A stretch of 64,000 nucleotides of DNA from Candidatus Pyrohabitans jungbluthii (GCA_002010065.2 MTMD02000001.1:77692-141691), one strand, 5' to 3'. Counted from the first letter of the stretch, positions 11,286 through 56,322 are shown. Notes: generated by a model not told the origin, from the letters alone. Numbers and translations: made by a program.

Positions 11286-12368
11286 CTACATCAGGAGGCT
11301 GAGGTACTCTTTAAGTAGCGACGGGTAAAGGCGTGGGTTGAATAGGATGTTGGTTATAAAGTAGCACTCATGAGTGCAGCAGCAGGCATTGCTCTTTATT
11401 TCAGCAACCACCCGCCTCGCGTCCTGCGATGCGAGTAGCTTATTTATGTCGTAGTCATACTCGCGCAGATTTCCCATCTTCTTCTCAAGAAGCTCACACG
11501 GGTAAACGTCGCCGGATTCTGTTACCACCAGGTTGAGCTTGCCAGCGTAGCACGGAATTAGCCTGCGCTTCTCCTTGGCGGTGCGATATATCAGCCTGCG
11601 CTGGAGAATGTCCTGTGCCGCCTTCAGCCTAGCCCCCGGGAAGCGGTACACCTTAGCCTTTCCAGAGCGCAGCTCCTGCTCCATCCTCTCAATAAGTTCG
11701 CGATAGCGTTCCATATCCACGCGTTTCATCTTCTCGCTCACGTCGCCGCGAATGAGCGAGAGGGTGTGGGTTTTTATGCTCTCCATGCGGGAGACGTACT
11801 CGAAGATCTCCTCTATTTTATCCTGGTTGGCGGAGCAGAACACGGTGTTTATGCCAAGCTCGAAGTTCGGGTACTTATCAAGCAGAGGCGAAAGCCTCTC
11901 GTATGTCTCAAGCACCTTCTCAAAGTTGCCCCTGACTCCGCGAATGGTGTCGTGGTCCTCGGCTATGCCGTCCAGGCTTAGTTTCACTGTTACTGTGCTC
12001 TTTCGGCAATGCTTCAGAATCTCTTCAGTCTTTTCTGCGATGCGTTGCGGAAGAAGCCCATTGGTGGGCAGGAGCATAATCACCGGCTTAGTGTGCCTGT
12101 AAAAAACCTTTGCAATCTCAACTATATCTTCGCGGAGGAACACCTCGCCACCCGAGAAAGCCAGCCAGAGAAGTTCAGGCATGCTGGAGGCGAAGCGCTC
12201 AATCTCTCCCAGAGAAAGCTCATCCTCTTGCACTCCTCTTTTCTCTTCATTTAGATAGAAGCAGAACCTGCAGGCGGAGTTGCACCGCCTGGTTACAAAG
12301 AAGGTAAGCTGCACAGGCTTATCCTTGATAAACACCTGCCTCACGTGGCGCAGCGGCGAGTACCTCAT
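11286..12368 (-). CDS. Radical SAM protein with SPASM/twitch domain
   Basis: CNSACRFC, FSGGEVF, CYAG...SGDVYPCE...CCCTHEC. Confidence 0.93.
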   Translation of the reverse strand: MRYSPLRHVRQVFIKDKPVQLTFFVTRRCNSACRFCFYLNEEKRGVQEDELSLGEIERFASSMPELLWLAFSGGEVFLREDIVEIAKVFYRHTKPVIMLLPTNGLLPQRIAEKTEEILKHCRKSTVTVKLSLDGIAEDHDTIRGVRGNFEKVLETYERLSPLLDKYPNFELGINTVFCSANQDKIEEIFEYVSRMESIKTHTLSLIRGDVSEKMKRVDMERYRELIERMEQELRSGKAKVYRFPGARLKAAQDILQRRLIYRTAKEKRRLIPCYAGKLNLVVTESGDVYPCELLEKKMGNLREYDYDINKLLASQDARRVVAEIKSNACCCTHECYFITNILFNPRLYPSLLKEYLSLLM

Positions 12369-13369
12369 CGCAAAACCCCCAGCTTCGCTTTGAGTATGTA
12401 GAGTCCTGTGCCTAAAGCGGCGCCTATCGCTACTGCAACGGGGTAAACAAGGAAGAAGTAAGCCGTAGCAGCAATCGCGAAGCCTGCGCCTTTTGCATTA
12501 TAAAAGCTCCTTATGAGATTGCGGCTTACGTAGAGGTTGAGGAACTGCGGGAGAAGGGCAAGAGCTAGGGGAGTGCCAAAGAAAGCCCAGCTTAAGAGCA
12601 GCGCAAGGGTGGCAAAGAACATTGCCACGTTCACCTTGAGCTCCACCGATGCAGCGCCAGAATCAGCGAGCAGATCGCGATTGCGCAGGGAGTAGAGCGT
12701 CCAGTACATGCTCTTTCGCACAGCGTTTCTCAGGGATTTTAAAAGGTTGAAGTTGAAGATATGCCCCACCTGTATCCTGGGATCCAACCTGAGCCTGTAG
12801 CCAGCCCTTTTAAGTCTGTGGCTGAACTCCACATCTTCCACGCTGGTGGTGTGCCCCATGAGATTATCCCTTACAAAACCGCCAGAGCTTTTGAAAAGCT
12901 GCGCATCTATAGCCAGGCAGTGCGTTGCGAGGTAGTCCGCCTCCTCGCGCTTGGTCTCGCAGTAGTTGACGTAGACCGATTGAAAGGTGCTGAAGAACCC
13001 CTGGGAGAAAGGTGGTATCTTGGTGTAGGTGCCGCCCACTATGCGAGAGCCGTTGCTCATGGCACGATTCACAAGCTTCAGCGTGTCCCTTGCGAGCACA
13101 CAGTCCGCGTCTATGAAAAGCAGAACCTCGCCTTTGCTGTGCTCAGCGCCGACGTTTCGCGCCACGCTCGGGCCGAGCTGCCTCTCAAGCTTTATCAGCC
13201 TGCATGGATAGCGCTTTATAATCTCTACCGAGGCGTCTGTCGACGCGTCATCAACCACGATTACCTCGAAGTTGGAGTAATCAGAAGCAAATACGCTCTC
13301 AAGGCACGCTTCCAGCGTAGCAGAGCCATTTCTGTTTGGTATTATCACAGAGATGAACTTCTCCTTCAT
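12365..13369 (-). CDS. GT2 glycosyltransferase with C-terminal TM helices
   Basis: ISVIIPNRN, VIVVDDASTD, FIDADC, VEDVEFSHRL. Confidence 0.93.
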   Translation of the reverse strand: MKEKFISVIIPNRNGSATLEACLESVFASDYSNFEVIVVDDASTDASVEIIKRYPCRLIKLERQLGPSVARNVGAEHSKGEVLLFIDADCVLARDTLKLVNRAMSNGSRIVGGTYTKIPPFSQGFFSTFQSVYVNYCETKREEADYLATHCLAIDAQLFKSSGGFVRDNLMGHTTSVEDVEFSHRLKRAGYRLRLDPRIQVGHIFNFNLLKSLRNAVRKSMYWTLYSLRNRDLLADSGAASVELKVNVAMFFATLALLLSWAFFGTPLALALLPQFLNLYVSRNLIRSFYNAKGAGFAIAATAYFFLVYPVAVAIGAALGTGLYILKAKLGVLR

Positions 13370-13458
13370 TCATTTAAAAGCCACAGGTTAACCTGCCCTG
13401 CGATATTTGTAGGATGTTATCTATACTATATAGGACAATCACGGAGAGAGGTTTTAAA

Positions 13459-15159
13459 TTGCAAACAGATGAGCTTAAAAGTAAGCTGCTGAGCACCCGA
13501 GGCATAGCTGTCGCCTCTCTGGTTATAACCCTCCTGCTCTTCCACTTCCGTAGCTATGATGACAATCGCACTACAAGCTGGCGCTGGGTTTTTGCCAGCG
13601 GCGACACCAGCTTTGCTGTGCTGCTTTGCCTCTTCGCCTTGGGCATTGCCTATATATTCTCCAAAATTGAAGTAAAGGAGCGCCACGAGGGGAAGGTACT
13701 CTTCGCCTTCGCCTTTATCTCAGGCGTCCTTTTTCTCCCAATACCAGAGATTATGATAGACACAGCGCGATACTTCACCTATGCCAAGTACGCCGAGCTT
13801 TATGGCTTGGGCTACTTTGTGAAGGAGTGGGGGTACGCGATAAAGCCCTGGACAGACCTGCCTCTGGTGCCCTTCATCTATGGCATAATTTTCCGCTTTC
13901 TGGGTGAGTCCAGGCTGTACATTCAGGTATTCAATCTGCTCCTCTTCTCGAGCAGTGTGCTGCTAACTATGAGAATTGGTGACGTGCTCTTTGGAAAAGG
14001 TACAGGCTTCTACGCCGGCTTGGCTCTGCTCGCCATGCCCTACTTTCTCATTCAGGTGCCCCAGATGATGGTAGACGTGGCAACGATGTTCTTCCTAACC
14101 TTGGCGGTTTACTCCACAATAAACGCACTGGAAAAGGGCACCCTCGCTGCGGCAGCATTTGCAGGAGTTGCGGTAGCTTTAGCCTTCTTCTCGAAGTACT
14201 CCACCTGGACAATGCTCTCCGTGCTAGCGGTGGTTTTTGTGATATATGCTAGAAAAAACATGGAGAAAGCGCTTAAAATATATACGATAATCGCTGCCCT
14301 TTCTGGCTTGCTAATCGCAGCGGTTATACTGCCAAAGCTTCCTGTGTTTGTAGAGCAAATCGAGCTCTTGAGGAGTTATCAAGCCCCAGGGCTGAGAAGG
14401 TGGAGTGAGAGCTACCTCTCGACCTTCTTCTTTCAGATTCACCCCTTTGTGAGCCTCGCCGCAATTTATGCCCTCTACCTGGCGGTAAAAGAAAGGCGTG
14501 GCGAAGTAGCCATAGCTTTGTGGCCTTTCTTACTGCTTTTTCTCCTGGATGTAAAGAGGATACGCTACACACTGCCCCTGTTCCCCATGCTGGCGCTGCT
14601 TGCGGGCTATGCAATAAGCAGGGTAAAAGACGCTGAGACAAGGAAATTTCTCGCCGGTTACGCAATGAGCTTTTCCATTCTCCTCGCCCTCTTCGCCTTT
14701 CTGCCATTCATTGAATCACTGAGCATTGTAAATCTTCGCGATGCTGGAGAGTTTCTCGACACCCTGAGCGTTGAAGAGGTTGAGGTCCATACGTGGGTAC
14801 CGCCAAAGACTAGCTACAACCCCAGCATAGCCGTTGCAATGCTTGACCTTTTTACGAGCAAAGAGATAATCTATAATCCTGATCCAATAATCCCGCCTGA
14901 GAAAGAAAAAATACTGCGCTCGCCCATAAGATTCACCTGGGAGTATGAGGTTCCCCCCTACTACAGGCGCAACTCCTCCGCAGAGGTCGTGGTTATAATT
15001 CAGAGGCAGTACAATGGCATGCCCGCATATCTTGAGCAGAGAGTTTCCAACCTGACCCTTCTCGCAAGATTCAACTCCACCATAGAGGGGCTATTCCGCT
15101 TCCGCACCCTCATAGATGTATATGGCCCTGCGCAGATTTCGCAGGTAGAGAAAAAATAG
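13459..15159 (+). CDS. Polytopic GT-C (ArnT/PMT, GT39/83-like) membrane glycosyltransferase
   Basis: Many TM segments. DTARYFTYAK, DLPLVPFIYG, MMVDV, AFFSKYS, RYTLPLFP. TTG start assumed (ORF open from 13414). Confidence 0.8.
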   Translation: MQTDELKSKLLSTRGIAVASLVITLLLFHFRSYDDNRTTSWRWVFASGDTSFAVLLCLFALGIAYIFSKIEVKERHEGKVLFAFAFISGVLFLPIPEIMIDTARYFTYAKYAELYGLGYFVKEWGYAIKPWTDLPLVPFIYGIIFRFLGESRLYIQVFNLLLFSSSVLLTMRIGDVLFGKGTGFYAGLALLAMPYFLIQVPQMMVDVATMFFLTLAVYSTINALEKGTLAAAAFAGVAVALAFFSKYSTWTMLSVLAVVFVIYARKNMEKALKIYTIIAALSGLLIAAVILPKLPVFVEQIELLRSYQAPGLRRWSESYLSTFFFQIHPFVSLAAIYALYLAVKERRGEVAIALWPFLLLFLLDVKRIRYTLPLFPMLALLAGYAISRVKDAETRKFLAGYAMSFSILLALFAFLPFIESLSIVNLRDAGEFLDTLSVEEVEVHTWVPPKTSYNPSIAVAMLDLFTSKEIIYNPDPIIPPEKEKILRSPIRFTWEYEVPPYYRRNSSAEVVVIIQRQYNGMPAYLEQRVSNLTLLARFNSTIEGLFRFRTLIDVYGPAQISQVEKK

Positions 15160-15168
15160 GGGGAGAGA

Positions 15169-15357
15169 CTAAATCCTCCTGTTCAACTCCTCAAGCAGCT
15201 TCTCGAGGTCTAACCCGCGGTCCTCAGCAACCTCTCGCAGTGTGCGCTTCATCGTAGTAAAGTCGCACTCACAGATATTGTGCTCCAAGAGGTAATCCAC
15301 AGCTTCCGGATACTCCCTGAAAATCTGGGCTATTTTCATATCAGGCGTTATCGCCAT
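15169..15357 (-). CDS. DUF1858/ScdA-N-like small helical protein
   Basis: ITPDMKIAQIFREYPEAVDYL...CEC...TLREVAEDRGLDLEKLLEELN. Confidence 0.8.
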   Translation of the reverse strand: MAITPDMKIAQIFREYPEAVDYLLEHNICECDFTTMKRTLREVAEDRGLDLEKLLEELNRRI

Positions 15358-15361
15358 GGCG

Positions 15362-15817
15362 CTACCTCGCCACAAGAACGCTGCACGGCGCGCGCTCCAC
15401 AACCTCCCTACCAACGCTGCCCATCAGCATAGTCCTGCGCTTTGAATGGGGCCCCACAACGATGATGTCAGCGCCCTCCTCTTCGGCGGTCTTTATTATC
15501 TCCTCCGCTGGGTGCCCTATCTTAACTATCTCCTTCGCCACAAGCACACTGCTCTCGAGGCAGGTCTTTGCCGTTTCAAGCACCTTTTTACCACTCTCGG
15601 TGAGAAGGTCTGCAAAGTTCTTACCTTCCTTCTTTAGACTCTCCAGCACCTCAGTAAACTCTGGTTTTCCCAGAAGCTCATAGTCATAAAGGTCACTGAG
15701 GTGAGCTACATATACAAGACAAAGCTCTGCGCCGAACTTCTCGGCAAGTTTCCCCCCCATGTTCAAAGCTTTAACGGAACTCTCGCTCCCATCAAAAGCA
15801 ACAAGCACTTTCTTCAT
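15362..15817 (-). CDS. Universal stress protein (UspA family)
   Basis: KKVLVAFDGSESS, GHPAEEII, ADIIVVG, MGSVGREVVERAPCSVLV. Confidence 0.95.
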   Translation of the reverse strand: MKKVLVAFDGSESSVKALNMGGKLAEKFGAELCLVYVAHLSDLYDYELLGKPEFTEVLESLKKEGKNFADLLTESGKKVLETAKTCLESSVLVAKEIVKIGHPAEEIIKTAEEEGADIIVVGPHSKRRTMLMGSVGREVVERAPCSVLVAR

Positions 15818-15837
15818 CTAAAATACACCTCCAATAT

Positions 15838-15864
15838 AAAAAGACGTAGGGAAGTCCCTACGTC
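15838..15864 (-). terminator. Hairpin plus U-tract terminator after the yeeE-tusA-cupredoxin operon
   Basis: Minus strand GACGTAGGG-ACTT-CCCTACGTC followed by TTTTT. Confidence 0.7.
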
Positions 15865-15872
15865 AGTAGCCT

Positions 15873-16526
15873 TCAATAGCCTGCACCGTAGCCAGCGGCT
15901 TCGCCATAGCCAAGCGCTTCTTCTCCGTAACCAGTGGCTTCACCGTAGCCTGCGCCCTCTTCAGCCGCTTGAGCGGGCTGAGCTTCTTCTGCCTTGGGCT
16001 TCACTATCAGCTTGCCTTCCATGCCCTTTTCTCTGTGCCCATTAACCGGGCAGTAGAAGGTGTATTCACCCGCTTTCTCAGCGACAAATTCCACCGTAAC
16101 CGATGCTCCTGGCTGTATCCCTGCCTGCATCTGTGCAGTTTCCTCGCCGTAGCCCGCGGCTTCACCGTAACCAGCGCCATATCCAGCGGCCTCGCCATAT
16201 CCCTCAGCAGCACCCTCCTCAGGCTTCACTGCATACACACCAAGCTCATCTATGGCAAAGTTGTGCACCTGCGAGCCAACGTTCTTGATGGTTATCCTAA
16301 CCACGTCTCCCTCGCTGACGGTTATGCTTGCTGGCTCAAATTTGAACTCCGACGCTTCGATGGTGAATTCCTTTGCTTCAGCGACGCCTTTTGCGGGCGC
16401 TGCCGCAGCAGGAGAGGGTTTTACATCCTCGAGACCTGCTGGTACGCCCGGAGAGAAGCTGTAGCCGACTATGAAGCTAAGCGCCATTGCGGTGACTATT
16501 GCAAGCACCGCTATATCGTCGCGCAT
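15873..16526 (-). CDS. Membrane-anchored cupredoxin (type-1 Cu) with Gly-Tyr-Gly repeats
   Basis: N-terminal TM helix. FKFEPASITVSEGDVVRITIKN, HNF, YTFYCPVNGHREKGMEGKLIV (H, C, H, M ligands). Two blocks of GYG repeats. Start 16526 or 16535. Confidence 0.88.
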   Translation of the reverse strand: MRDDIAVLAIVTAMALSFIVGYSFSPGVPAGLEDVKPSPAAAAPAKGVAEAKEFTIEASEFKFEPASITVSEGDVVRITIKNVGSQVHNFAIDELGVYAVKPEEGAAEGYGEAAGYGAGYGEAAGYGEETAQMQAGIQPGASVTVEFVAEKAGEYTFYCPVNGHREKGMEGKLIVKPKAEEAQPAQAAEEGAGYGEATGYGEEALGYGEAAGYGAGY

Positions 16527-16531
16527 TGCGA

Positions 16532-16786
16532 TCACGCCTTCTTTATCCTGTAGACAAATGTACCGCCGTCGGAGCGCTTCTCTATTATCTCATGCCCTTC
16601 CTTGTCGCAGAGCGCTGTAATACTCTCCTCTGAGGAGGGGTTGTCAAAGAGCACTTCAAGTACATCGCCGCTCTTCAGCTTCTGCAGCGTCTTCATTGTG
16701 TAGAGTTGGGGATGTGGACATACATAGCCCTTGACATCCAGCTGGTATACTCCATCTTCAAGCTTCTTAACTTTCACTTTCTGCAC
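16532..16786 (-). CDS. tusA: Sulfur carrier TusA/YeeD family
   Basis: LDVKGYVCPHPQLYTMKTL...GDVLEVLFDNPSS (CPxP). Confidence 0.93.
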   Translation of the reverse strand: MQKVKVKKLEDGVYQLDVKGYVCPHPQLYTMKTLQKLKSGDVLEVLFDNPSSEESITALCDKEGHEIIEKRSDGGTFVYRIKKA

Positions 16787-16790
16787 CTCC

Positions 16791-18182
16791 TTACTCTATC
16801 TCTATGTCAATATCAAAATCCTCTTCCTTAAGCTGGCGCTCAGTCCACCAGTTGAGGAACTTCACGCTTGCCAATGCGCCGCCGCCCATGCCCAAGAAGA
16901 ACAGCCAGCCACCGGGGTCACCGCCAGCAACACGGATGTAGAATGCACCGATGTTGCAGCCCAGTGCTATTCGCGCACCGAGACCCATGAGCGTGCCTCC
17001 GAGGATGCCCCAGACTGCCAGCTCCTTGGTTGGTGCCTTGAACTTGAACTCCTTGTTGAGCAGAGCTATGGCTGCCGCACCAAGGATTATACCTATGGAC
17101 ATGAGCAACGCAGGGTTGTGCCACGGCTCGGGTATGCCGTTCATTACGCCAAAGTATATATTGTCCTTCATGTTCCATCCGAACTTCTCCAGCACCCAGG
17201 CACCCACCTGCGCTTCCTGTGTGGTTATATACCAGTAACCGGGGTCAAACACTGTACCTCTCCTAGAAACTTCTTCCACAAAACCAAGCTTCACCAGAGC
17301 CTGGCCGAAGTTTTCTATACCGAACTTGTCCCTGAGGCTCTGCATCGCCATTACGTGGATGCCTGCTATTATGCCAATTAGAATCCCCGCAAGGGTTGTT
17401 CTTTTCGAAGCAGTTATCATCTGCCAGAAGCCGTAAAGCTCGTCTTTGAGACCCAGCTTAACATCCCCGCCGTCCGCAGGCAGTGTTGCTGCTTTCTTCT
17501 CTATAATGCGCCTGACAATGCCCTTCCTAGCAACAAACCAATACGCGAGGCTGAGGAATATCAGCGTGGGTATTATGGTGTTGATGATCGAATTCGCTAT
17601 AAAGTATTCGCCAAGGCTAAGGCCCTTACCAAAGAATTTCTCTGCCAAGGTGAACTTAGGCTGCGGGAATATGTAGCCCCTCAGAAGCTTGTCGAACCAT
17701 CCCTGCGCATCTACGAATATCGCTTGAGAGAAGGATATCGCGAGCAGAGCAAGCATAGAGGTGCCATTACCCTCGCCGGTTTTGTACAACGTACCAGAAG
17801 CACAGCCACCAGCGAGCACCATACCCAGACCAAATATAAGCCCGCCAACAAGTTCATGTATACCCAGTGGGCCAGGATGGAAGGTGCTCAGCTGGTTTGC
17901 CGCCAGCACTGCCATGATAACGCTGAACACACCCATGGCGACCATTATGCCCACGAACATCCTAGTTACGCCGATGGCGAAGAGGTCGCGCCACGCTGAA
18001 GCGAAACAGAATCTGCCCCACTGCAGAAGTATGCCGTAGGCAAAGCCGAACCATGCGTAGGCAATGATGTACATGTAGATCGGGTTGACTCTATAGTACC
18101 ACAGGCTTATTATCAACATTATGCCAACTACAGAAAAAGCCCAGAATTTCCTCCTTCTATCGGCATCGTCTGCCATATTCAT
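16791..18182 (-). CDS. YeeE/YedE thiosulfate/sulfur-compound transporter
   Basis: GRFCFASAWRD, GMVLAGGCASGTLYK, GARIALGCNIGA (three conserved Cys). AGGAGG ribosome site before 18182. Confidence 0.93.
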   Translation of the reverse strand: MNMADDADRRRKFWAFSVVGIMLIISLWYYRVNPIYMYIIAYAWFGFAYGILLQWGRFCFASAWRDLFAIGVTRMFVGIMVAMGVFSVIMAVLAANQLSTFHPGPLGIHELVGGLIFGLGMVLAGGCASGTLYKTGEGNGTSMLALLAISFSQAIFVDAQGWFDKLLRGYIFPQPKFTLAEKFFGKGLSLGEYFIANSIINTIIPTLIFLSLAYWFVARKGIVRRIIEKKAATLPADGGDVKLGLKDELYGFWQMITASKRTTLAGILIGIIAGIHVMAMQSLRDKFGIENFGQALVKLGFVEEVSRRGTVFDPGYWYITTQEAQVGAWVLEKFGWNMKDNIYFGVMNGIPEPWHNPALLMSIGIILGAAAIALLNKEFKFKAPTKELAVWGILGGTLMGLGARIALGCNIGAFYIRVAGGDPGGWLFFLGMGGGALASVKFLNWWTERQLKEEDFDIDIEIE

Positions 18183-18394
18183 CCTTTCCTCCTTAAGCTT
18201 GTACTGAGCATTCTGGAGTATCTTGTTCCCCATACCTATATTTATATTTTTCGAAAGTGGTTTCAAGATAACCGAAATTTAATTCCTCACACTTTCATAA
18301 AAATCAAAAGTTATAATGTTGGATTAATAAATAATAGAAAAATATTTAAACATCTAGATAAAATAGAAAATTTAGCTTATTGGGTGATTTTATT

Positions 18395-18625
18395 ATGGAG
18401 CATTTGTGCGCAGGCAAGAGCATAAATCTGGATTTAACCTTCTGTCCACCAGCGGCAGTGGTTACGTCCAGCTTGAAAAAGGCTGAAAGTGGAGAAGTTT
18501 TGCTTGTAAAGGCATCAAGGTGTCAGGTTGAAATGGTGGAAGCGATTGCAGAGCGGCTTGGTGCAGAGATAATCCAGAAGGAAAAGAAGGGCTCTGCCAC
18601 AGAACTATGGATAATTAAGAAGTAG
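18395..18625 (+). CDS. TusA-like protein (FCPP variant), copy 1
   Basis: DLTFCPPAAVVTSSLKKAESGEVLLV...ELWIIKK. GGTGA upstream. Confidence 0.7.
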   Translation: MEHLCAGKSINLDLTFCPPAAVVTSSLKKAESGEVLLVKASRCQVEMVEAIAERLGAEIIQKEKKGSATELWIIKK

Positions 18626-18822: not shown

Positions 18823-20040
18823 ATGGGAAAGATAAACCTCTTTTACATAGCGAGGCGCAACCTCAAGCGGAAGTGGTTTAGAAGCCTCGCGCTGATTTTA
18901 GCTGTGACAATCGCATCAGGTGCTTTATTTGCCAGTGTTTTGATGATGGAAAGCGTTGGGAGAGGTGCTGAGATAAGTACAAGCATGCTCGGCGCAGATG
19001 TCATGGTCGTACCTGTGGGCTATGAAGCCCAGGCGAGAGCATCTCTGCTTGCAGGCGAGCCAAACAAGTTTTACATGTCGCGAAGCGTTGAGGATGAAGT
19101 CAAAAAGGTGCCGGGAGTGGCGCAGACCTCTGTTCAGGTCTTCGCCGAGACCGCCGCATTTCCGTGCTGTGGGTTTACAAAAAGCTTCCTCATAGGCTTC
19201 GATCCTGAGACAGATTTCACTGTGATGAAGTGGGTGGGTGAGTCGCTTGACCGCCCCTTTGGTAAGGACGACGCAATTCTCGGGTTTTCCCTGGCTGCAC
19301 TACCCGGATTCAAAACCTATGTGCACGGTCACGAGCTGACTGTGTGGGGCAAGCTCAGGCAGAGCGGCATAAAATACTTCGACAACTCTCTTTTTGTGCC
19401 TATAGAGACCCTCTACAACATAGCTGAGGAGAGCAAGAAGAGGGATGAGGTAGCACCTCTGGAAATAGAGAGAGGGCAGATTTCCGTTGTGCTGGTTAAG
19501 GCAGAGGAGGGCGTATCTCCAGACGTGCTGGAGGTCAGGATAGAGGGGCGCGTTCCCGGGGTGATCGCCATACCCATGCCCCGCGTGCTTCATACCGTAA
19601 GAGCACAGATGGCAACCCTATTCGGCAGTCTTACCATTCTCGTTGCCGTGCTGTGGGTTGCGAATACGCTCATGGTTGGGGCGATATTCACAACCATAGT
19701 GAGTGAGCGCAGAAAGGAGCTGGGAATACTCCGCGCTATCGGAGCGAACCGCAGACATGTGTTTAGACTGATTCTCGCAGAAGCTGCTTTCCTCACAGCC
19801 CTTGGTGGGCTTCTGGGCATTGCCGCAGGGGGTGCCCTCTTCTATGCCTACAAGGGCATAGTAACCAGCTCCTTCTCAGCACTTAAGATACCATACATCT
19901 GGCCCACAGCCGCGCACGTAGCCGCGATTTCCATTTTCACCCTTATCTCTGCCCTTGCCATGGGAATAATAGGTGCGCTTTATCCGGCTTACACCTCTGC
20001 GAAGCTCGACCCATACAACGCCATAAGGACGGGTGAGTGA
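18823..20040 (+). CDS. MacB/FtsX-type ABC permease
   Basis: ARRNLKRK, LGADVMVVP, ERRKELGILRAIGA, LYPA...LDP. Extracytoplasmic FPCC. Confidence 0.92.
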   Translation: MGKINLFYIARRNLKRKWFRSLALILAVTIASGALFASVLMMESVGRGAEISTSMLGADVMVVPVGYEAQARASLLAGEPNKFYMSRSVEDEVKKVPGVAQTSVQVFAETAAFPCCGFTKSFLIGFDPETDFTVMKWVGESLDRPFGKDDAILGFSLAALPGFKTYVHGHELTVWGKLRQSGIKYFDNSLFVPIETLYNIAEESKKRDEVAPLEIERGQISVVLVKAEEGVSPDVLEVRIEGRVPGVIAIPMPRVLHTVRAQMATLFGSLTILVAVLWVANTLMVGAIFTTIVSERRKELGILRAIGANRRHVFRLILAEAAFLTALGGLLGIAAGGALFYAYKGIVTSSFSALKIPYIWPTAAHVAAISIFTLISALAMGIIGALYPAYTSAKLDPYNAIRTGE

Positions 20041-20724
20041 ATGATTATAAAGACAGAGCACCTCTGCAAAACCTACAAGATAGGAGACCAGGTGATAGAG
20101 GCGGTTAAGGGAGTGGATATTGAAATTGAGCGCGGGAAGTTTGTGAGCATTGTGGGGCACTCAGGCAGCGGGAAGACCACTCTGCTCTCGCTGATAGGGG
20201 GGCTTACGAGACCAACCCACGGTAAGGTGTACATAGATGGCATAAATATATGGAATCTGAGCGACGAGAAGCTATCTGAGCTGAGGAATAAGAAGATAGG
20301 GTTTATGTTCCAGTTTTCGAGTCTAATTCCAACACTCAACGCCATAGAGAATGTGATGTTACCAGTAGCCTTTGGAAAAGGTGCAAGCGGAGACGTGGAG
20401 AAGCGAGCAAAGGAGCTTTTGGAGCTTGTGGGGCTTGGGCACAGGATGCGCAACGTACCCTCGCAGCTCAGCGGCGGAGAGCAGCGCCGCGTTGCGATTG
20501 CGCGTGCCTTAATCAACGACCCAGATATAATACTGGCGGACGAGCCCACTGGCGACCTTGACCGAGAAACCGAAGAGGAGGTTATGGAACTCTTTCTGAA
20601 GATAAACCGCGACTTCGGCAAGACCTTTGTGATGGTTACTCACAATCCCGAGCTTGCCAAGCGAACCGACATAACCCTTAGAATGGAAAACGGCAGCATA
20701 ATTGCGAGAGAAGAGCATGGGTAA
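20041..20724 (+). CDS. LolD/MacB-type ABC ATP-binding protein
   Basis: GHSGSGKT, LSGGEQRRVAIARAL, ILADEPTGDLD, VTH. Confidence 0.96.
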   Translation: MIIKTEHLCKTYKIGDQVIEAVKGVDIEIERGKFVSIVGHSGSGKTTLLSLIGGLTRPTHGKVYIDGINIWNLSDEKLSELRNKKIGFMFQFSSLIPTLNAIENVMLPVAFGKGASGDVEKRAKELLELVGLGHRMRNVPSQLSGGEQRRVAIARALINDPDIILADEPTGDLDRETEEEVMELFLKINRDFGKTFVMVTHNPELAKRTDITLRMENGSIIAREEHG

Positions 20725-21931
20725 GCCGAGCGTAGCCAGGCTGGCCTTTAAAAATTTAAAGCGCAAGCGTTTTAGGGCAATTACACTGATACTTGCCATA
20801 GCAATAGCCACAGCCTCCCTCTTTTCCAGCATTATTATCCTCAGGAGCGTGGAGCAAGGTTTAGAAAGTGCTGTTGCCCGCCTTGGCGCGGATCTGGTGG
20901 TGGTCCCGGAGGGCTACGAGAAGAAGGCAAGCGAGGTTCTGCTGGGAGGCGAACCCTCGACGTTCTACATGGATTCGAGCATTGTGGGAGAGATTAGGAA
21001 AGTGCCTGGCGTCGCAAAGGCATCGCCGCAGATATTTCTGCAGACTTCCTCTTACCTAATATGCTGCGAGGTCATGGAGACGCTCTTCATCGCCTATGAG
21101 CCCGAAACCGATTTTACGGTAACACCCTGGATAGAGTCCAAGCTTCCTTATATTCCCGAGGAATATGTGGTAACCGGGGGAGGAATACCTGTTTATGAGA
21201 ACTTCTCCATGTACATCTACGGCCACTGGTATGTGGTGTATGCAAGGCTCCATAAAACAGGACTGCGCTACTTCGACTCCACTATTTTTATCCCCATGGA
21301 CCTCGCGTATTCCCTTGCTCAGGAGAGCCAACGCAATCCGCGGGTGGCGAACCTCACACTGAAGCTGGGTAAGATCTCTGCGGTACTGGTGCAGGTTAGC
21401 GGTGGCAACGCAACTCAGGTTGCCAGGCAAATTGAAGAGCGCGTGCCGGGAACGAGTGTTGTTATGAGCAGCTCCATGGCGTCAAATGCAAAAACGCAGG
21501 CGGTCTCACTTTTCTCCTCGCTAATAGCTATATCCGCTCTGCTGTGGTTCGCCAACCTCCTGATGATTTCAGCCACTTTCGCAACTATAGCGGGAGAGCG
21601 CCGCCGTGAGTTTGGTCTGCTTCGCGCCATAGGTGCAAAGAGGAGCGATGTGATGAAGCTGATGCTCTATGAGGCAAGTTTCCTCGCCACCATAGGTGCC
21701 ACCCTGGGGCTAACCATCGGCACCGCTATATTCTTTGCTTTCAGGGAGGAGGTTACCAAGTCCTTCGAAAAGCTCCTTATCCCATTTTTCTGGCCCAATC
21801 TGGATACGCTACTCGTCACCGCTGTGGTAGCATTCGCCTCCGCGGTGGTCATGGCTTTTCTGGGCACCTTTTATCCCGCGCTTAGCGCGGCAAAGGAAGA
21901 GCCATACGCAGCTATTCGATACGGGGAGTAA
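20717..21931 (+). CDS. MacB/FtsX-type ABC permease (paralog)
   Basis: Paralog of 18823..20040. LGADLVVVPEG, ICC, ERRREFGLLRAIGA. Confidence 0.92.
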   Translation: MGKPSVARLAFKNLKRKRFRAITLILAIAIATASLFSSIIILRSVEQGLESAVARLGADLVVVPEGYEKKASEVLLGGEPSTFYMDSSIVGEIRKVPGVAKASPQIFLQTSSYLICCEVMETLFIAYEPETDFTVTPWIESKLPYIPEEYVVTGGGIPVYENFSMYIYGHWYVVYARLHKTGLRYFDSTIFIPMDLAYSLAQESQRNPRVANLTLKLGKISAVLVQVSGGNATQVARQIEERVPGTSVVMSSSMASNAKTQAVSLFSSLIAISALLWFANLLMISATFATIAGERRREFGLLRAIGAKRSDVMKLMLYEASFLATIGATLGLTIGTAIFFAFREEVTKSFEKLLIPFFWPNLDTLLVTAVVAFASAVVMAFLGTFYPALSAAKEEPYAAIRYGE

Positions 21932-27323: not shown

Positions 27324-27566
27324 ATGGGTATTCCGATGAAACAGATACATGCCAATAAAATCATAGTGCTTAACAAAACCTTCTGTCCACCTGCAGCGGT
27401 GGTGCTCTCCAGCCTAAAGAAGGCAAAGGCAGGAGAGGTGCTCCACATCAAGGCTTCAGCGTGCCATGCCCAGCTTGTAGCTGACTTAGCTGAGCGCGTA
27501 GGGGCCGAGGTGATATTTAAGGATAAAAATGGCACCTGCACCAGCTTCTGGATTTTGAAAAAGTAG
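27324..27566 (+). CDS. TusA-like protein (FCPP variant), copy 2
   Basis: NKTFCPPAAVVLSSLKKAKAGEVLHIKASAC...FWILKK. Clear paralog of 18395..18625. Confidence 0.7.
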   Translation: MGIPMKQIHANKIIVLNKTFCPPAAVVLSSLKKAKAGEVLHIKASACHAQLVADLAERVGAEVIFKDKNGTCTSFWILKK

Positions 27567-50942: not shown

Positions 50943-52604
50943 GTGATGCCATTGCAGAATAACAACCAGGGGAAACTTGGTCCCCGGGACATCGAAGCTC
51001 TTATTGCCAATGAGCGCTATATTGGTAAGGACGCTGTGCGCGGTAATATCGTCGCTGCCCTCGCTGTGGCTGAGACGCTTAAGACGACGCTCGGTCCTCG
51101 CGGTTTGGACAAAATGCTCATGGTGGAAGGGGGAGAGGTGGCGATTACAGACAGCGGGGGTACAATACTCAAGCTTATAGACCTGGTGCACCCTGCGGCG
51201 AAGATGATGCAGAGTCTGGGTTTAACAATGGGCGAGCGCTACGGTGATGGCGCAACAAGCAGCGTAGTCTTTGCCGGGGAACTTCTGAAGCGGGCTTTGA
51301 ATTTGATGGAACTTGGACTGCATCCCACCACAATAATCAACGGATACCGCATGGCGCTGGAAGAGACGCTTAAGGTGATGCATAAGCTCTCACGGAAGGT
51401 CACCCCCGGAATAATAAAGGATGTAGGGATAACCATATTCAAGGGCAGACTCGGCGAGAGAGATGCCGAGTTTATGGCGCAGGTTGTCGCGTCAGCACTA
51501 GACTTCGCGGGCGGGGAGAAGGATAATGTTTATGTGAACTACCGCCCCGGAGGCAAGCTCCGCGACACCACCCTCTACGAGGGGATCTATATAGACCTGG
51601 GAAAGCGCGTTCATCCAGCAATGCCCAAGAAGGTGGAGCACGCGCGCATCCTGCTAATAGATACAGAGTTCGATGTGCGAAAGGTTGAGAATGCGAAATA
51701 TGAGATTGGCGACCCGCGCAGAATGCGCGAGTTCATGGAGTACAAGCGCAAGGTGCTTCGCGTCGCCGTGGAGATGATAGCTCGCTCCGGTGCAAATGTG
51801 GTGTTCTGCCAGAAGAACATAGCCGACGTGGCGATGTACTACATGGCAATGAAGGGCATCCTGGGCGTGCGCGACGTGGAGAAGAAGGTGATGCACCTTC
51901 TCGAGAGGGCCACAGGTGCGCAGATAGTGAGCCACGTTAAAGAGGTTACGCCAGAAGTGCTGGGCTACGCGGGTTATGTGGAGGAGGATAAAATTGGCTT
52001 AGAGGAGATAATGTATGTGCGCAAGTGCAAGAATCCCGGTGTGGCCTCGATACTCGTTCGCGGGGGGAATGAGAAGTTTGTGCTGGAGTTGAAGCGTCAG
52101 ATTGAAGATTTAATCGACGTATTTGCGGCGCTTCGTGAACATGGCAGGGTTGTGCCTGGTGGCGGTGCTGTAGAGGGTGAAGCCGCGAAGAGGCTGCGCA
52201 GGTTTGCACGCAGCGTCGAAAGTAAGGAGCAGCTCGCCATAGAGGCGTTTGCAGATGCACTTGAGGAGCTTCCTCGCGCGATAGCAGCGAACGCGGGCAT
52301 GGACGCAACGTATGCGGTGCTGAAAATACGCGAGTGGCACCACAGGGGTAAGAAGGGCTATGGCGTCGACGCGATGCGCCGCGGGATGGGCGACGCCTAC
52401 GTTAAGGCTATCCTCGACTCCTACGAGGTGCGCAGGAATGCCCTAAGCTCTGCGGTAGAGGTGACGTGCTCTATTCTGAGAATAGACGACGTGCTCATAA
52501 AGCGCAAAAAGAAGGCTAAGCCAAAGAAGCCCGAACCAGTGGATTCGCCGGTACGCAAGGATGGCAAGATAGACCTGAGGTATGCGTTCAAGGGGTTAAG
52601 GTAG
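50943..52604 (+). CDS. Divergent group II chaperonin (thermosome-like)
   Basis: TLGPRGLDKM, HPAAK, GLHPTTIINGY, VVFCQKNI, PGGGAVE, ILRIDDV. TNDG is changed to TDSG and GDGTTT to GDGATS. Confidence 0.9.
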   Translation: MMPLQNNNQGKLGPRDIEALIANERYIGKDAVRGNIVAALAVAETLKTTLGPRGLDKMLMVEGGEVAITDSGGTILKLIDLVHPAAKMMQSLGLTMGERYGDGATSSVVFAGELLKRALNLMELGLHPTTIINGYRMALEETLKVMHKLSRKVTPGIIKDVGITIFKGRLGERDAEFMAQVVASALDFAGGEKDNVYVNYRPGGKLRDTTLYEGIYIDLGKRVHPAMPKKVEHARILLIDTEFDVRKVENAKYEIGDPRRMREFMEYKRKVLRVAVEMIARSGANVVFCQKNIADVAMYYMAMKGILGVRDVEKKVMHLLERATGAQIVSHVKEVTPEVLGYAGYVEEDKIGLEEIMYVRKCKNPGVASILVRGGNEKFVLELKRQIEDLIDVFAALREHGRVVPGGGAVEGEAAKRLRRFARSVESKEQLAIEAFADALEELPRAIAANAGMDATYAVLKIREWHHRGKKGYGVDAMRRGMGDAYVKAILDSYEVRRNALSSAVEVTCSILRIDDVLIKRKKKAKPKKPEPVDSPVRKDGKIDLRYAFKGLR

Positions 52605-52651
52605 GGCAATAAATAAAGCTTTTTATATTTTCTATCAAAAATATTAGTTGG

Positions 52652-53338
52652 ATGAATGTCCATATTGCTCCAATCGGGACTCAAAGTGACGAGCATATCC
52701 GGAGGGCTGTTCATGGAAAAACGCCAGTGGATAAACTCTACCTAATACCAACGAAAGAGTCTTATGAAAAAGCAATTAAGTTGAAAGAAGACCTTGAAAA
52801 CACGCTTTCTTCTTTGAAAATAGAGATAAAGATGCTTGAAGAACAAGGTAGAAAACGTTTTATCGATCCATTTAATCTCAACGACATCGTTGCAGCAATA
52901 TTACAAATTGCAAACGCGGAGAAAGGAAATAAACTATTTGTAAACATAACTGGCGGAACAAACCTAATGGCAGGAGGTGCAACAACTGCAGCATATCTCA
53001 CGGGTGCAACCATATACTATATTAAGAAACAACAGGAGAATGAAAGACTTGAAGACATTATAATAAAAATCCCCGTTCCAAAAATACCGCTTTACAAATA
53101 CGGAGAAATTAGAGTAAAGATTTTAAAGATTATTGCAGAAAAAGGAGGAAGAATTAACAAAGCAAAAGAACTTGCAAGAGAATTGGACATAGCTCCGCAA
53201 ACGGTAAGCTACCATCTCAAAGAGTTAGAAAAGTCAGGACTCGTAAAAGTGATCATGGATGAAAACAACAGGCGACAGAAGCAATATGAGATAACAGAGA
53301 ACGGCAAATTAATAGCTACATTATTTGAGGTTGATTAG
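52652..53338 (+). CDS. CARF (DUF6293/Csa3-like) + winged-HTH regulator
   Basis: VHIAPIG, VDKLYLI, FVNITGGTNLM, ELARELDIAPQTVSYHLKELEKSGLV...ITENGK. AT-rich. Confidence 0.82.
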   Translation: MNVHIAPIGTQSDEHIRRAVHGKTPVDKLYLIPTKESYEKAIKLKEDLENTLSSLKIEIKMLEEQGRKRFIDPFNLNDIVAAILQIANAEKGNKLFVNITGGTNLMAGGATTAAYLTGATIYYIKKQQENERLEDIIIKIPVPKIPLYKYGEIRVKILKIIAEKGGRINKAKELARELDIAPQTVSYHLKELEKSGLVKVIMDENNRRQKQYEITENGKLIATLFEVD

Positions 53339-54293
53339 TCTGTTCTAACGGGAACTTTGCAAAAATGTTAAGGATACCGAAGGTTAGATCTCGTGCTTTT
53401 TCTACATTTTCCTTGTGCATTGAGTCAGAGATATTCGCACATGTCCTATGTTCATATTTATTTCGTAAAGCTTGTATAACAATTAATTTTTCTGTAAGAC
53501 ATTTTAATTCATCATATGATAATGAATGGCCGATGTAATTCAAAAATTCTTCCATTATATCATTGTATATAATAATCATACAAAAAATTGGTATTAAATT
53601 TTTTATTTCACATGTTCCTTTATAGCAAACATCAAATTCTTTAATTTCTGGATCGGTGATTACATCCATTTTTTGTCTACTGCTTTTGAGATAATCTATA
53701 ATTTTATTTTCAATCTTATTTCGTTCTAGCTCTTTACAAATTTTATCTAATTTTTGTAAATATTTCATATTGTTATCTGATATAATTTTTTGAATTATAG
53801 TTTTGTCTTTAACTAAATAATTTGGATATTTATTTTTAGTATTATAATCAAAATCTTTTTCTTTTTCAAAAATTTTGTCTTCATATTTACAATCGAATAT
53901 TATGTTTTTAATTTCACTATTATTTAAAAATGAATTGAGTATAATTCTTAAATTATTTATTAATGAATCAGAATCTCCTAACACCTGATCATAATATCCA
54001 TATTTTATGATATCTCTGGCTTTGATAAAGTCGATATCAGATTCTTTGACTTTAATTTCTAAATCTTTAAGTTTTGATTTTATATACTGATATTCCGGAA
54101 TAATTTTCAAATTTTTAGATAATTTATTTTCTATTTCCCTTTCATAGGTTTTATCAGACGCTTGATTTAGTATTTTTCTAATTTGCCGCCGAATTTCGAC
54201 CATAGATACCCCAGATAAAAATGCAACTAAAATTCTCCAATTTTGTTTTAGAATTTTTTGAATATCTTCTATATCTACTTTTTTTAATTCCAT
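53316..54293 (-). CDS. AT-rich hypothetical protein with C-terminal HEPN-like RxxxxH motif
   Basis: LRNKYEH followed by an amphipathic helix. Extremely AT-rich codons. Confidence 0.65.
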   Translation of the reverse strand: MELKKVDIEDIQKILKQNWRILVAFLSGVSMVEIRRQIRKILNQASDKTYEREIENKLSKNLKIIPEYQYIKSKLKDLEIKVKESDIDFIKARDIIKYGYYDQVLGDSDSLINNLRIILNSFLNNSEIKNIIFDCKYEDKIFEKEKDFDYNTKNKYPNYLVKDKTIIQKIISDNNMKYLQKLDKICKELERNKIENKIIDYLKSSRQKMDVITDPEIKEFDVCYKGTCEIKNLIPIFCMIIIYNDIMEEFLNYIGHSLSYDELKCLTEKLIVIQALRNKYEHRTCANISDSMHKENVEKARDLTFGILNIFAKFPLEQTNQPQIM

Positions 54294-54415
54294 ATATGAA
54301 GAGTCTTAGAAAATAAATTATTTAAATGTTTTCTCAAACAATTCGACAAAACATCGAACAATCATAGGCAAGGCTAATTAAGTATAACGGAAAATCTGAG
54401 GACTGAGGTGATGTC

Positions 54416-54718
54416 ATGAAGATGAACACACTAAGCAAAAAGATAAAAACCAAAATTGAGTATGGCGCTTTATTGCTTGCCGATGAGCTATGGAACAGCA
54501 GTAAGCACATTCTCAGAGAAATATCTGCGGCAGTTGATTTCATAGCTTTTCTAAAGTTTATGAGAGATAAGAAGGTTGGAATCAGAGAAAAATTTGGACC
54601 ATTGGTTTTGGCTGTTATCACACGCAGTAAGATAGTTGCCAGCATGACTGTTGAATACTATAGAAGAAGGATAAAGGCCTATAGAAAGGACGCAGAGAGG
54701 ACGCTTAGCGGAGCATGA
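54416..54718 (+). CDS. Hypothetical protein (100 aa)
   Basis: GAGGTGA ribosome site before ATG. No family recognised. Confidence 0.5.
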   Translation: MKMNTLSKKIKTKIEYGALLLADELWNSSKHILREISAAVDFIAFLKFMRDKKVGIREKFGPLVLAVITRSKIVASMTVEYYRRRIKAYRKDAERTLSGA

Positions 54719-54770
54719 CGTCATAGATTTTTATCCATTGTCTGATGTCCATCAAATTTGCTCAATCTAA

Positions 54771-54896
54771 ACCTCAACCAATTTTAATCCAAAACTTTTT
54801 AGCGTTTTGGAAGACTTCGGTATAGTCAGAAAGAAAAAAAGAGGTAGAGAGGTAGAAGTAGAACTCGCTGTAAAGAAGATTGTGATTTTCAAGTGA
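54771..54896 (+). pseudogene. C-terminal remnant of a winged-helix regulator
   Basis: Frame without an ATG: ...VLEDFGIVRKKKRGREVEVELAVKKIVIFK-stop (wHTH wing). Confidence 0.45.
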
Positions 54897-54901
54897 CGTG
54901 C

Positions 54902-55252
54902 TTAAAACAACGGCGGCGAATGCGTCGCGAGGAGAATTAATTCCTCGCTACCAGTGTTTTCAATCCCATGCTCCTCCCCCGGCGGAACAAAGATATAGTC
55001 ACCTTCCCTTATGCCAACCCACTCCCCATTCACATAAGCTTTTCCCATACCCTTTAAAATGTAGATGGAGTCCACCTCCTTTTCATGGAGGTGCACGCTG
55101 GCGGAGCTTCCAGGGGATATTTTCAGTACAGAAACGCTCACCTCAGAGTTTTTCTCGCTCGTTATGAGCTTCGCAATCTCTACTCCAGCGAACTTGGGGT
55201 GAGGCTCAAACCTAATATCAGCGCTTTTTATTAAAATGCTGCCCATGCTCAC
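54902..55252 (-). CDS. Cupin domain protein
   Basis: HLHEKEVDSIYILKGMG and GDYIFVPPGEEHGIEN. Confidence 0.92.
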   Translation of the reverse strand: MSMGSILIKSADIRFEPHPKFAGVEIAKLITSEKNSEVSVSVLKISPGSSASVHLHEKEVDSIYILKGMGKAYVNGEWVGIREGDYIFVPPGEEHGIENTGSEELILLATHSPPLF

Positions 55253-56322
55253 TCCGCCCTGAGGAAGTAGGTGCTCTCCCCGGAGGTGTCTATTTTATTC
55301 ACAGAGGCAAACTCGGCACCAAGCTCCTCTCCGCTCAGATTGCTCGCCGCGTTCAGCATCTCCTCCACTTGCTTATACTCGTGCTCAAGGAAAAGCTTGG
55401 CTATCTTCGCCATAGCTCTGTAAAAGTCCATCTCCACTATCTCTTCGCTCTTGTATTTCTCAACGTCGCGCACGTCGCCATGATACTTGAGCGCTATGCC
55501 CACCTTGAACTCGTCGGTGGCTACATCGTCGAAGAGGTAGGGCAGCCAGAGAATCATATGCTCATGGATGAACTTCTTCTGGCGCTCCAAAGCGAGGAGT
55601 GCCTTTTCCCTGTCGCCAGCTTTCCACGCTTCTATCTCATCCTCCAGCAGGCGGAAGGCAAACTCAAGCTCAAGTTTGGCTTCGTCCGGCGGGAGGTTTC
55701 CGCGTGATTTATCAAGAATATAACCTGCCTCACGGTACAGGTTCTTAACCTCAGCCGTCAAATCGCCCATTATCTGCTTCTCGCTTCTATACACAGACTC
55801 GTGCCCCGAGATGTATGGCATGAGGTCGTCGTCGAAAATTGTAAACCGCTCCGCCTCAAGCTCACGCCGGAACTTCTTTGGCTTCATGTCAGCGAAGGCG
55901 TTACGGAATCGCTCAAGCGCCTGGAAGTGCTCCTCAAGCAGGTTCTCAGGGATAATCTTACCTAGAGCGGAGCGGAGCTTTTCCATGTACTCCCCGCTCA
56001 GAATCTCCTCTGCCAGAGCAGGAGAAATCTCTGTAAAAGCGCGGAAAATCTGGAAGTATGCGTCTCGCCTGGCAACGGCGAGCTCAACATAACTCTTCGC
56101 ATCGTGAGGCGTCGCAGGAGTGCGCTGAATGTTGGGCTTCCTATTCTCTACTAAAGCGATCCAGTGGTCTTTATCTTTAATATTCATGGAGTGAATCCAG
56201 AACAGATAGTTATACTTCTTGAGCAGATTCTTCCAGTCCTTTGCCAATTCGGGATCAAAGTACCACTTTACGTAATCGTTCCTCTCAAATATATCCTTGG
56301 GCTCTCTCGGCAAGGTTAACAC
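55249..56322 (-). CDS. TorD/DmsD-family molybdoenzyme maturation chaperone with N-terminal extension
   Basis: HESVYR, LYREAG, LPPDEAKLELEF, QKKFIHEHMILWLP, FYRAMA. Confidence 0.8.
   Translation of the reverse strand: MLTLPREPKDIFERNDYVKWYFDPELAKDWKNLLKKYNYLFWIHSMNIKDKDHWIALVENRKPNIQRTPATPHDAKSYVELAVARRDAYFQIFRAFTEISPALAEEILSGEYMEKLRSALGKIIPENLLEEHFQALERFRNAFADMKPKKFRRELEAERFTIFDDDLMPYISGHESVYRSEKQIMGDLTAEVKNLYREAGYILDKSRGNLPPDEAKLELEFAFRLLEDEIEAWKAGDREKALLALERQKKFIHEHMILWLPYLFDDVATDEFKVGIALKYHGDVRDVEKYKSEEIVEMDFYRAMAKIAKLFLEHEYKQVEEMLNAASNLSGEELGAEFASVNKIDTSGESTYFLRAE

Follow-up and report, generated by a model that had tools for sequence, protein, structure and literature searches.

A 64,000 nt stretch of the archaeon Candidatus Pyrohabitans jungbluthii (genome G000; G000:C1:77692-141691, hereafter the window) carries part of a gene module that is a real, conserved and undescribed extension of a known sulfur-import cluster. 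The module consists of genes for a YeeE transporter, the sulfur carrier TusA, a single-pass transmembrane (TM) protein with GYG repeats, UspA, two glycosyltransferases (GT-C and GT2), a radical SAM enzyme (rSAM), a B12-type radical SAM enzyme (B12-rSAM) and a sugar-mutase-like flavoprotein. Coordinates are window positions unless a contig is named. Every gene named in an initial annotation of the window was found where it had been placed, including the uspA, DUF1858 and GT-C neighbors of a yeeE-tusA-cupredoxin operon. That annotation missed the flavoprotein and B12-rSAM genes, which sit on another contig (C8) of G000, and dsrEFH type II-like genes, also outside the window. The gene linkage of the module is conserved far beyond this genome: across archaea and bacteria, the rSAM, GT2 and GT-C genes show linkage with this YeeE subfamily as well as with TM-GYG proteins, and the lack of linkage that the annotation had named as evidence against its proposal was not observed.

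In a Desulfobulbaceae record, the genes for GT-C, YeeE, TusA, the TM-GYG protein, UspA, the flavoprotein and B12-rSAM are consecutive. A metagenome scan contributed the best 80 of 539 confirmed stretches. We built a YeeE tree of 87 rows from loci with a YeeE frame of at least 380 aa, dropping three archaeal duplicates. The tree separated a 61-row module clade from 18 sister rows. Genes were counted only at loci with enough flank, in the clade among its 53 non-archaeal rows; some rows are near-copies, which are not independent events. On this basis the module clade contained GT-C in 31/38, a TM protein with YG motifs in 34/38, UspA in 28/35, B12-rSAM in 20/23, the flavoprotein in 13/23, rSAM in 10/14 and GT2 in 8/14 loci. 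In contrast, the corresponding counts in the sister rows were 0/11, 0/14, 0/12, 0/10, 0/10, 0/8 and 0/8. The sister loci encode yeeE-tusA followed by DsrE/F/H-like genes, and none of the 18 carries the enzymes or the GYG tail; two of them (L131 and L133) have a helix stub without the tail. Many bacterial module loci lie in or beside yeeE-tusA-dsrEFH type II (YTD) genes.

Whole genomes were compared in the order Desulfobulbales, to which G031 belongs (201 genomes, mostly incomplete assemblies of unstated quality). B12-rSAM was found in 40, rSAM in 36 (35 at ≥50% identity) and the long YeeE in 27 of them, and 161 genomes were without all three. All 27 genomes with the long YeeE carried both radical SAM genes. 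The remaining eight rSAM genomes encode a circularly permuted YeeE of 418-420 aa with a GGYG gene upstream, next to B12-rSAM, and this block abuts tusA and DsrE/F-like genes in most of the eight. Every genome with an rSAM orthologue (35/35) therefore also has a module YeeE, either long or permuted. Because the genomes with the permuted YeeE also carry rSAM, B12-rSAM and a GGYG gene, the module accompanies two distant YeeE subfamilies. A YeeE search of 301 genomes of the phylum of G031 at E 1e-90 returned 1/301; the matches were split and the threshold was too strict, so this search was not used for counts.

We examined 31 related archaeal genomes including G000, requiring at least 59% identity for YeeE and at least 55% for rSAM orthologues. 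The long YeeE was present in 10/31, rSAM in the same ten and in G010 (62% complete), and GT-C in the same ten, with paralogues of 32-33% identity or fragments in five genomes. G009 (98% complete) had no YeeE, rSAM or GT-C orthologue at those thresholds. Five genomes of the genus share the window layout as far as their contigs extend; the G003 contig breaks within the GYG repeats, and a second G001 copy stops after uspA. G005 and G007 encode yeeE-tusA-GYG-DUF1858 with GT-C, and GT2-rSAM beside B12-rSAM and the flavoprotein. In G006 and G008 the module genes are spread over at least three contigs; the YeeE, rSAM and GT-C orthologues are co-retained even when scattered. G022, from another family, has the same divergent GT-C/GT2 pair. 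The flavoprotein and B12-rSAM of G000 (C8:111352-114176) are 51% and 58% identical, respectively, to their bacterial orthologues, and this half-module (C8:105071-116493) lies beside a second, split YeeE and a rhodanese, so that each half of the module adjoins a YeeE. The G000 dsrEFH type II-like genes (C11:53689-54493) are arranged back to back with another DsrE/F/H-like trio, beside dsrMK-like genes (C11:53689-58173), and dsrA scores above its family cut-off in this genome.

Some features of these assemblies stand apart from the linkage. G001 has two copies of the locus (C17 and C49), perhaps from mixed strains. Assemblies break at the GYG repeats: in G003 the gene is in two pieces with partial duplication (end of C32 and start of C8), and in G006 and G022 it forms the contig end. 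An open frame of 3,318 aa on G000:C2:536644-546600 encodes an exported multiheme cytochrome-like protein with large internal repeats.

The archaeal rSAM rows fall on one side of a branch with support of 80, and the archaeal B12-rSAM rows likewise with support of 99. In a YeeE tree of 42 selected rows, with the sister group as root, two further hits join the six archaeal YeeEs (98/97), and Desulfobulbales- and Nitrospirota-labeled rows lie on both sides within the same clade. Acquisition from Desulfobacterota or Nitrospirota had been suggested as a check: the archaeal YeeEs do nest among bacterial ones, but no donor in either phylum was singled out. The sequence trees fit a single gain of the archaeal module from bacteria and indicate no particular donor lineage.

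The YeeE protein matches Pfam Sulf_transp with 165 bits (cut-off 27), and its Cys57, Cys125 and Cys407 are invariant in an alignment of 51 sequences and align with cysteines of the solved YeeE 6LEO. Three conserved relay cysteines are a feature of the YeeE family (PMC11073785). The tusA gene directly follows yeeE in nearly all loci compared. Because the three relay cysteines and the CPxP motif are present, homology and motifs suggest that YeeE likely takes up a reduced sulfur species and that TusA receives it. YeeE falls below the cut-offs of the TsuA equivalog families in NCBIfam (126/400 and 89/645 bits). Its best NCBIfam score is to the YedE/FdhT selenium family (141/350 bits) and that of TusA to the YedF selenium family (57/79 bits), both again below cut-off. 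These scores would be expected if the system handled selenium and its product were a selenosugar, a reading that we consider highly improbable and rejected: G000 (99.95% complete) has no selD above cut-off and no selenocysteine tRNA entry in its listing, and the neighbors are DsrE-like proteins and rhodaneses.

The third gene of the operon encodes a TM helix (residues 8-26) followed by a cupredoxin domain and eight GYG motifs in two blocks; none of 100,000 shuffled sequences reached eight motifs, the maximum being five. Tyr25 of the helix is invariant in 30 homologues, and one Phe and one Ser are near-invariant. We predicted a complex of YeeE with residues 4-40 of this protein, which scored 0.80 against 0.01 for the best of three controls, these being unrelated 37-residue proteins and not TM helices; the mark used for this score is met by 116/157 solved pairs and 2/215 mismatched pairs. 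The runs shared at least 95% of contacts and the partner pLDDT was at least 75. Partner residues 11-15 contact YeeE residues 45-49 and 369-370, and residues 22-25 contact YeeE 35-39 and 270-277. The helix is thus predicted to bind YeeE as a third, single-pass subunit. As the basic YeeE N-terminus is taken to be inside, the GYG tail would point outside the cell, which fits the fusion to cupredoxin in G000 and to rhodanese in L099 and L107.

Fusion of the TM-GYG protein to a type-1 copper domain was borne out. The domain matches its Pfam family with 56.5 bits (cut-off 27), the type-1 ligand set is present (His91, Cys162, His167 and Met172), and the C-terminal ligands align with the N-terminal cupredoxin of NirK (2DV6), so that the protein carries a predicted type-1 (blue) copper domain. 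The nearest simple cupredoxin, P0231, is without the insert that holds GYG block 1. The copper domain is a genus-level add-on and not central to the system: the fusion was found only in G000-G004 and four protein clusters of the same type, and G005 and G007 encode GYG proteins of 79-82 aa without cupredoxin.

In the 57 tails compared, the x position of G-x-G holds Tyr in 336 cases, His in 13, and Phe or Trp in none, although repeats within one tail and related genomes are not independent observations. There is free variation in the spacers and in the number of copies, from 1 to 12. GGYGA is the most frequent unit, in many cases with Pro after it, and minimal versions have a single motif (L105, L174, L175 and L027). 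Sulfur globule proteins are likewise exported and repetitive, keratin-like and structural (PMC10386293). The composition of the tail and this likeness are what one would expect of an unmodified sulfur-globule-protein-like or resilin-like arm that binds elemental sulfur (S0) or polysulfide and presents it to YeeE, the enzymes being co-regulated envelope genes. We regard this as quite unlikely, since the single-motif versions are too small for a binding coat, the tails here are acidic and hydrophilic, and the motif tolerates neither Trp nor Phe; moreover, the sister group has the same sulfur import and relay gene types and lacks the tail.

Other variants of the small protein were noted. Eleven loci (L130, L137, L140, L149, L157, L158, L174, L175, L178, L179 and L180) have two small TM genes in tandem downstream of tusA, one with the helix motif and no GYG and the other with a single A/S-Y-G-G motif. 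In L161-L168, the GGYG protein upstream of the permuted 418-aa YeeE has a different leader resembling a cleavable signal peptide, and this protein may therefore not stay anchored but be released. G000 also encodes GYG-rich proteins that have no relation to the locus; these are Met-rich. Readings of the tail as a PQQ-like ExxxY or a mycofactocin-like C-terminal Tyr substrate were rejected, as neither of these motifs is retained in the homologues.

The enzyme annotated as radical SAM/SPASM is a radical SAM protein, and its SPASM domain barely exceeds the Pfam cut-off (22.7 vs 21.5 bits). A canonical two-cluster SPASM domain uses a seven-cysteine motif for two auxiliary clusters. Here, five C-terminal cysteines (273, 291, 329, 331 and 335) are invariant, spaced C-x17-C and C-x-C-x3-C, and suffice for one cluster; the enzyme is therefore better called Twitch-like, with one putative auxiliary cluster. 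It has no N-terminal peptide-recognition (RRE) domain, the barrel beginning at residue 20 of the model, and Pfam detected neither an RRE domain nor a PqqD-like partner gene among the window neighbors. The nearest folds were tied between SkfB (Z 22.6, root-mean-square deviation 3.9, 282 aligned residues) and BlsE (Z 21.9, 3.5, 293), both at 17-20% identity, and there is no close solved relative.

The XYG motif of splicease substrates occurs as GYG in the protein linked to rSAM; the best 25 of 66 NCBIfam rows for rSAM include no splicease. Tyramine is cut out at XYG motifs by spliceases, whose binary systems work without a separate RRE protein (PMC11414181). With this precedent, with SkfB as the top fold match, and with rSAM, GT2 and GYG genes showing the tightest co-occurrence, rSAM might act directly on the GYG motifs before export by tyramine excision or Tyr cross-linking, with GT2 possibly glycosylating the phenol and GT-C and B12-rSAM forming a separate glycan branch. 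This seems unlikely to us. An RRE domain and a leader are lacking and there is a single auxiliary cluster; no peptide-maturase family in NCBIfam came near its cut-off (best 85/500 bits). The tail lies behind a signal anchor, which makes its cytoplasmic exposure likely short; the coupling partner of the rSAM gene is GT2 rather than the GYG gene; and we found no precedent for backbone splicing in a cupredoxin loop and up to 12 times per tail.

Four of the five enzymes point to sugar chemistry, and the fifth, rSAM, is coupled to GT2, whose gene adjoins it in archaea and bacteria. GT2 has hydrophobic segments at 255-273 and 297-315 as C-terminal membrane helices. The nearest match of the flavoprotein is eukaryote-type UDP-galactopyranose mutase (E 1e-22). 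Among NCBIfam families, B12-rSAM comes closest to HpnJ (TIGR03471; 215/577.6 bits for the L079 orthologue, below cut-off), a protein for which sugar-ring contraction has been proposed (PMC13459092). GT-C was assigned by a multi-helix GT-C fold together with a conserved acidic residue in the first external loop: its model (pLDDT 91.8) is nearest to ArnT (TM-score 0.52), ALG12/ALG9 (0.51) and STT3, with a Foldseek E of 1e-7 to STT3, ArnT and ALG12, and Asp116 and Arg119 are invariant in 40 sequences, placing the modeled protein in the GT-C superfamily. From this fold, we infer that its donor is lipid-linked and that it works on the outer face. For neither GT-C nor GT2 did a sequence search against solved structures give an informative match.

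We tentatively favor, at somewhat below an even chance, the explanation that the enzymes build a radical-tailored, lipid-linked sugar that GT-C transfers to the GYG tyrosines at the mouth of the sulfur importer. Gene linkage, the constancy of Tyr and the enzyme families speak for this explanation, and O-glycosylation of Tyr has a precedent in S-layer proteins (PMC2943079). In the proposed mechanism, the GYG helix would pack on YeeE with its N-terminus inside, placing the repeats, and in this genus the copper domain, at the outer mouth. A sugar on polyprenyl-phosphate would be made and tailored in the cytoplasm by GT2, both radical SAM enzymes and the mutase-like flavoprotein, and GT-C, the sole member of the set expected on the outer face, would move it onto Tyr hydroxyls. 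The decorated tail, fused to cupredoxin or rhodanese in some lineages, may help to capture or condition sulfur, which would then be imported to TusA and passed to DsrEFH type II/Dsr.

Several observations weigh against this explanation. The main one comes from five Desulfobulbales genomes with B12-rSAM only. The four examined (G342, G380, G387 and G400) keep GT-C along with other GT2 and flavoprotein paralogues, and have no GYG gene at the B12-rSAM locus or at the plain yeeE-tusA-dsrE locus; GT-C there must therefore have another acceptor. A DNA pattern detected no tandem GGYG-type gene in them, although a single-motif gene would escape it; as the pattern gives equally many hits when read backwards, only position-inspected hits were counted. 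The closest companions of the GYG gene are rSAM and GT2, both cytoplasmic. An orthologue of the flavoprotein is frequently absent, with nothing but a paralogue of 37-40% identity at another place in five of these genomes. The GT-C fold is equally near to enzymes with lipid, glycan and protein acceptors, and that of rSAM matches a peptide maturase (SkfB) and a sugar enzyme (BlsE) equally well. dsrA occurs in 19/31 archaeal genomes versus 10/31 for the module, which is therefore not required for Dsr metabolism. The dependence among repeat counts and the choice of controls for the predicted complex count on the same side.

The persistence of GT-C and B12-rSAM without a GYG gene in these four genomes, and ArnT as the best GT-C TM-score, would be explained if the enzymes made a modified glycolipid or envelope glycan. 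GT-C would then act on lipid like ArnT and B12-rSAM on the head group like HpnJ or calditol synthase (Cds), and the GYG protein would be an unmodified YeeE subunit sharing the operon as both serve growth on sulfur. HpnI/HpnJ and Cds do work on lipid head groups (PMC13459092). We nevertheless consider this rather unlikely. It fails to explain why the GYG tail occurs only with the enzymes, in two YeeE subfamilies, and why there are zero Tyr-to-Phe changes. Archaeal and bacterial lipids differ, and the same enzyme set is found in both domains. In addition, the GYG-less genomes are nested within the module clade on the B12-rSAM tree, so that their loci look derived.

A more specific form of the glycosylated-tail explanation can be envisaged. 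The radical SAM enzymes might make a thiol-bearing sugar, with sulfur supplied via YeeE-TusA, and its attachment by GT-C to every GYG tyrosine would create swinging arms that catch S0 or polysulfide, with the copper centre setting the redox state. We think this improbable; a fully cysteine-ligated auxiliary cluster would argue mildly against insertion of sulfur into the sugar.

The layout of the locus is given in Table 1. As initially annotated, yeeE, tusA and the cupredoxin gene form a minus-strand operon, overlapping or 4 bp apart, followed by a terminator-like hairpin. The hairpin (15864-15843) has a perfect 9-bp stem followed by a T-run, and both are retained in L022 and L024 with different letters. 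The GT2 and rSAM genes, which overlap by 4 bp, had been described as a divergent pair; they are divergent from GT-C (44 bp away) but co-directional with yeeE. DUF1858 genes are also found in G005, G007, L092, L130, L140 and L178.

Table 1. Coordinates of the module genes and adjacent features in the window.
Feature	Position	Strand	Basis and remarks
Radical SAM enzyme (rSAM)	11286-12368	-	Pfam/NCBIfam profiles, cysteine alignment, structure model
GT2 glycosyltransferase	12365-13369	-	Pfam GT2 110 bits
GT-C glycosyltransferase	13414-15159	+	Pfam PMT_2 45 bits, cut-off 26
DUF1858 protein with CxC	15169-15414	-	Pfam; likely start ATG 15357; occasional module member
UspA	15362-15817	-	Pfam Usp 101 bits; regular module member
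Terminator-like hairpin and T-run	15843-15864	-	Between cupredoxin gene and uspA
TM + cupredoxin + GYG protein	15873-16535	-	Likely start ATG 16526
GYG block 1, Tyr113/119/123/129	16146-16202	-	Inserted within cupredoxin loop
GYG block 2, Tyr197/203/210/216	15876-15950	-	C-terminus
TusA/YeeD-family sulfur carrier	16532-16786	-	Pfam TusA 78 bits (cut-off 28.6); CPHP = CPxP
YeeE/YedE transporter, long subfamily	16791-18176	-	461 aa from likely start 18176; open frame to 18266
Divergent TusA-like gene	18380-18625	+	Pfam TusA 21.9 bits, below cut-off
MacB-ABC-MacB exporter genes	18823-21931	+	Pfam; loose association with module

The divergent TusA-like gene is probably peripheral and outside the module: it adjoins yeeE only in this genus and is absent from that position in G002. 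It has a paralogue at 27324-27566 (58% identical), and both, found only in this genus, have CPP in place of CPxP. MacB-like genes flank the module in L079, L093, L108, L114, L117, L173 and L177 and the second half-module on G000:C8. Bacterial module flanks also contain a conserved 379-aa exported protein (L079:6008-7147) with no Pfam or NCBIfam match, and both extracellular domains of the window MacB proteins have a Cys-Cys pair. The segment at 52600-56300 has a GC content of 38-43% versus about 52%, with several unannotated ORFs, and is possibly foreign.

The module most resembles known systems in parts. Like the YTD cluster (PMC13293266; PMC13047784; also PMC9751629 and PMC13490349), it has YeeE and TusA, in bacteria in or beside DsrE/F/H-like genes, and the G000 DsrE/F/H-like genes lie beside dsrMK-like genes, as stated for archaea in PMC13293266. 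The description of the locus as archaeal and YTD-like holds for yeeE, 4 bp from tusA, but not for dsrE or DsrF/H-like genes, which are absent from the locus and lie on C11. The small TM proteins that the initial annotation ascribed to YTD clusters are not a counterpart of the GYG protein, as the two hypothetical proteins of that cluster are DsrF/H-like subunits of DsrEFH type II (PMC13293266; PMC13047784). The module adds the GYG subunit, UspA, two glycosyltransferases, two radical SAM enzymes and the flavoprotein. With YeeE-YeeD (TsuA-TsuB; PMC11073785; PDB 6LEO and 8J4C) it shares the three YeeE cysteines, a CPxP partner and gene adjacency; its YeeE is about 120 residues longer (an extra N-terminal helix and a central insert) and under the TsuA cut-offs, a third, single-pass subunit is predicted, and the sulfur substrate is deduced from homology.

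HpnI/HpnK/HpnJ, which make bacteriohopanetetrol cyclitol ether, and calditol synthase likewise combine a glycosyltransferase with a radical SAM enzyme whose proposed role is to remodel a sugar ring (PMC13459092). In contrast, the module B12-rSAM scores well below the HpnJ cut-off, works with GT-C and a mutase-like enzyme, occurs in archaea and is tied to a transporter. In S-layer glycosylation, sugar is placed on Tyr of an exported protein from a lipid carrier (PMC2943079), whereas the proposed acceptor here is a transporter subunit with a repeated three-residue motif and the transferase is PMT_2/ArnT-like. The spliceases PlpX and RhaX pair a radical SAM enzyme with an XYG motif (PMC11414181); the module differs in having no leader or RRE, a membrane-anchored substrate and an enzyme coupled to GT2. 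The terms 'radical SAM' and 'glycosyltransferase' do not occur in the main text, supplements aside, of PMC13047784 and PMC13490349. Our literature search found no paper on the module combination, with subscription journals largely uncovered and supplements that might list the genes. New in this window are the archaeal (Ca. Hydrothermarchaeota) form, the copper-domain fusion and the distribution of the genes over three contigs; this analysis also adds the control with the sister group and the prediction that the helix forms a complex with YeeE.

The uptake system has been proposed to set substrate specificity in anaerobes with reductive-type DsrAB (PMC13293266), and the module bears on how these organisms bring S0, polysulfide or thiosulfate into the cell. 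It is a part of YTD-type loci unmentioned in the accessible text of the YTD papers cited. In both archaea and bacteria it brings together a predicted third YeeE subunit, five enzymes and, in GYG, a sharply defined candidate site of modification. In the archaeal form, a redox domain with copper would sit at what is predicted to be the importer mouth. If thiol-sugar arms were indeed formed, they would amount to a new protein-bound prosthetic group that carries sulfur outside the cell, a sugar-based, extracellular equivalent of the SoxY arm and of lipoyl carriers. Such a brush could supply the first step, so far missing, in the use of elemental sulfur by Dsr-based disproportionators and oxidizers.

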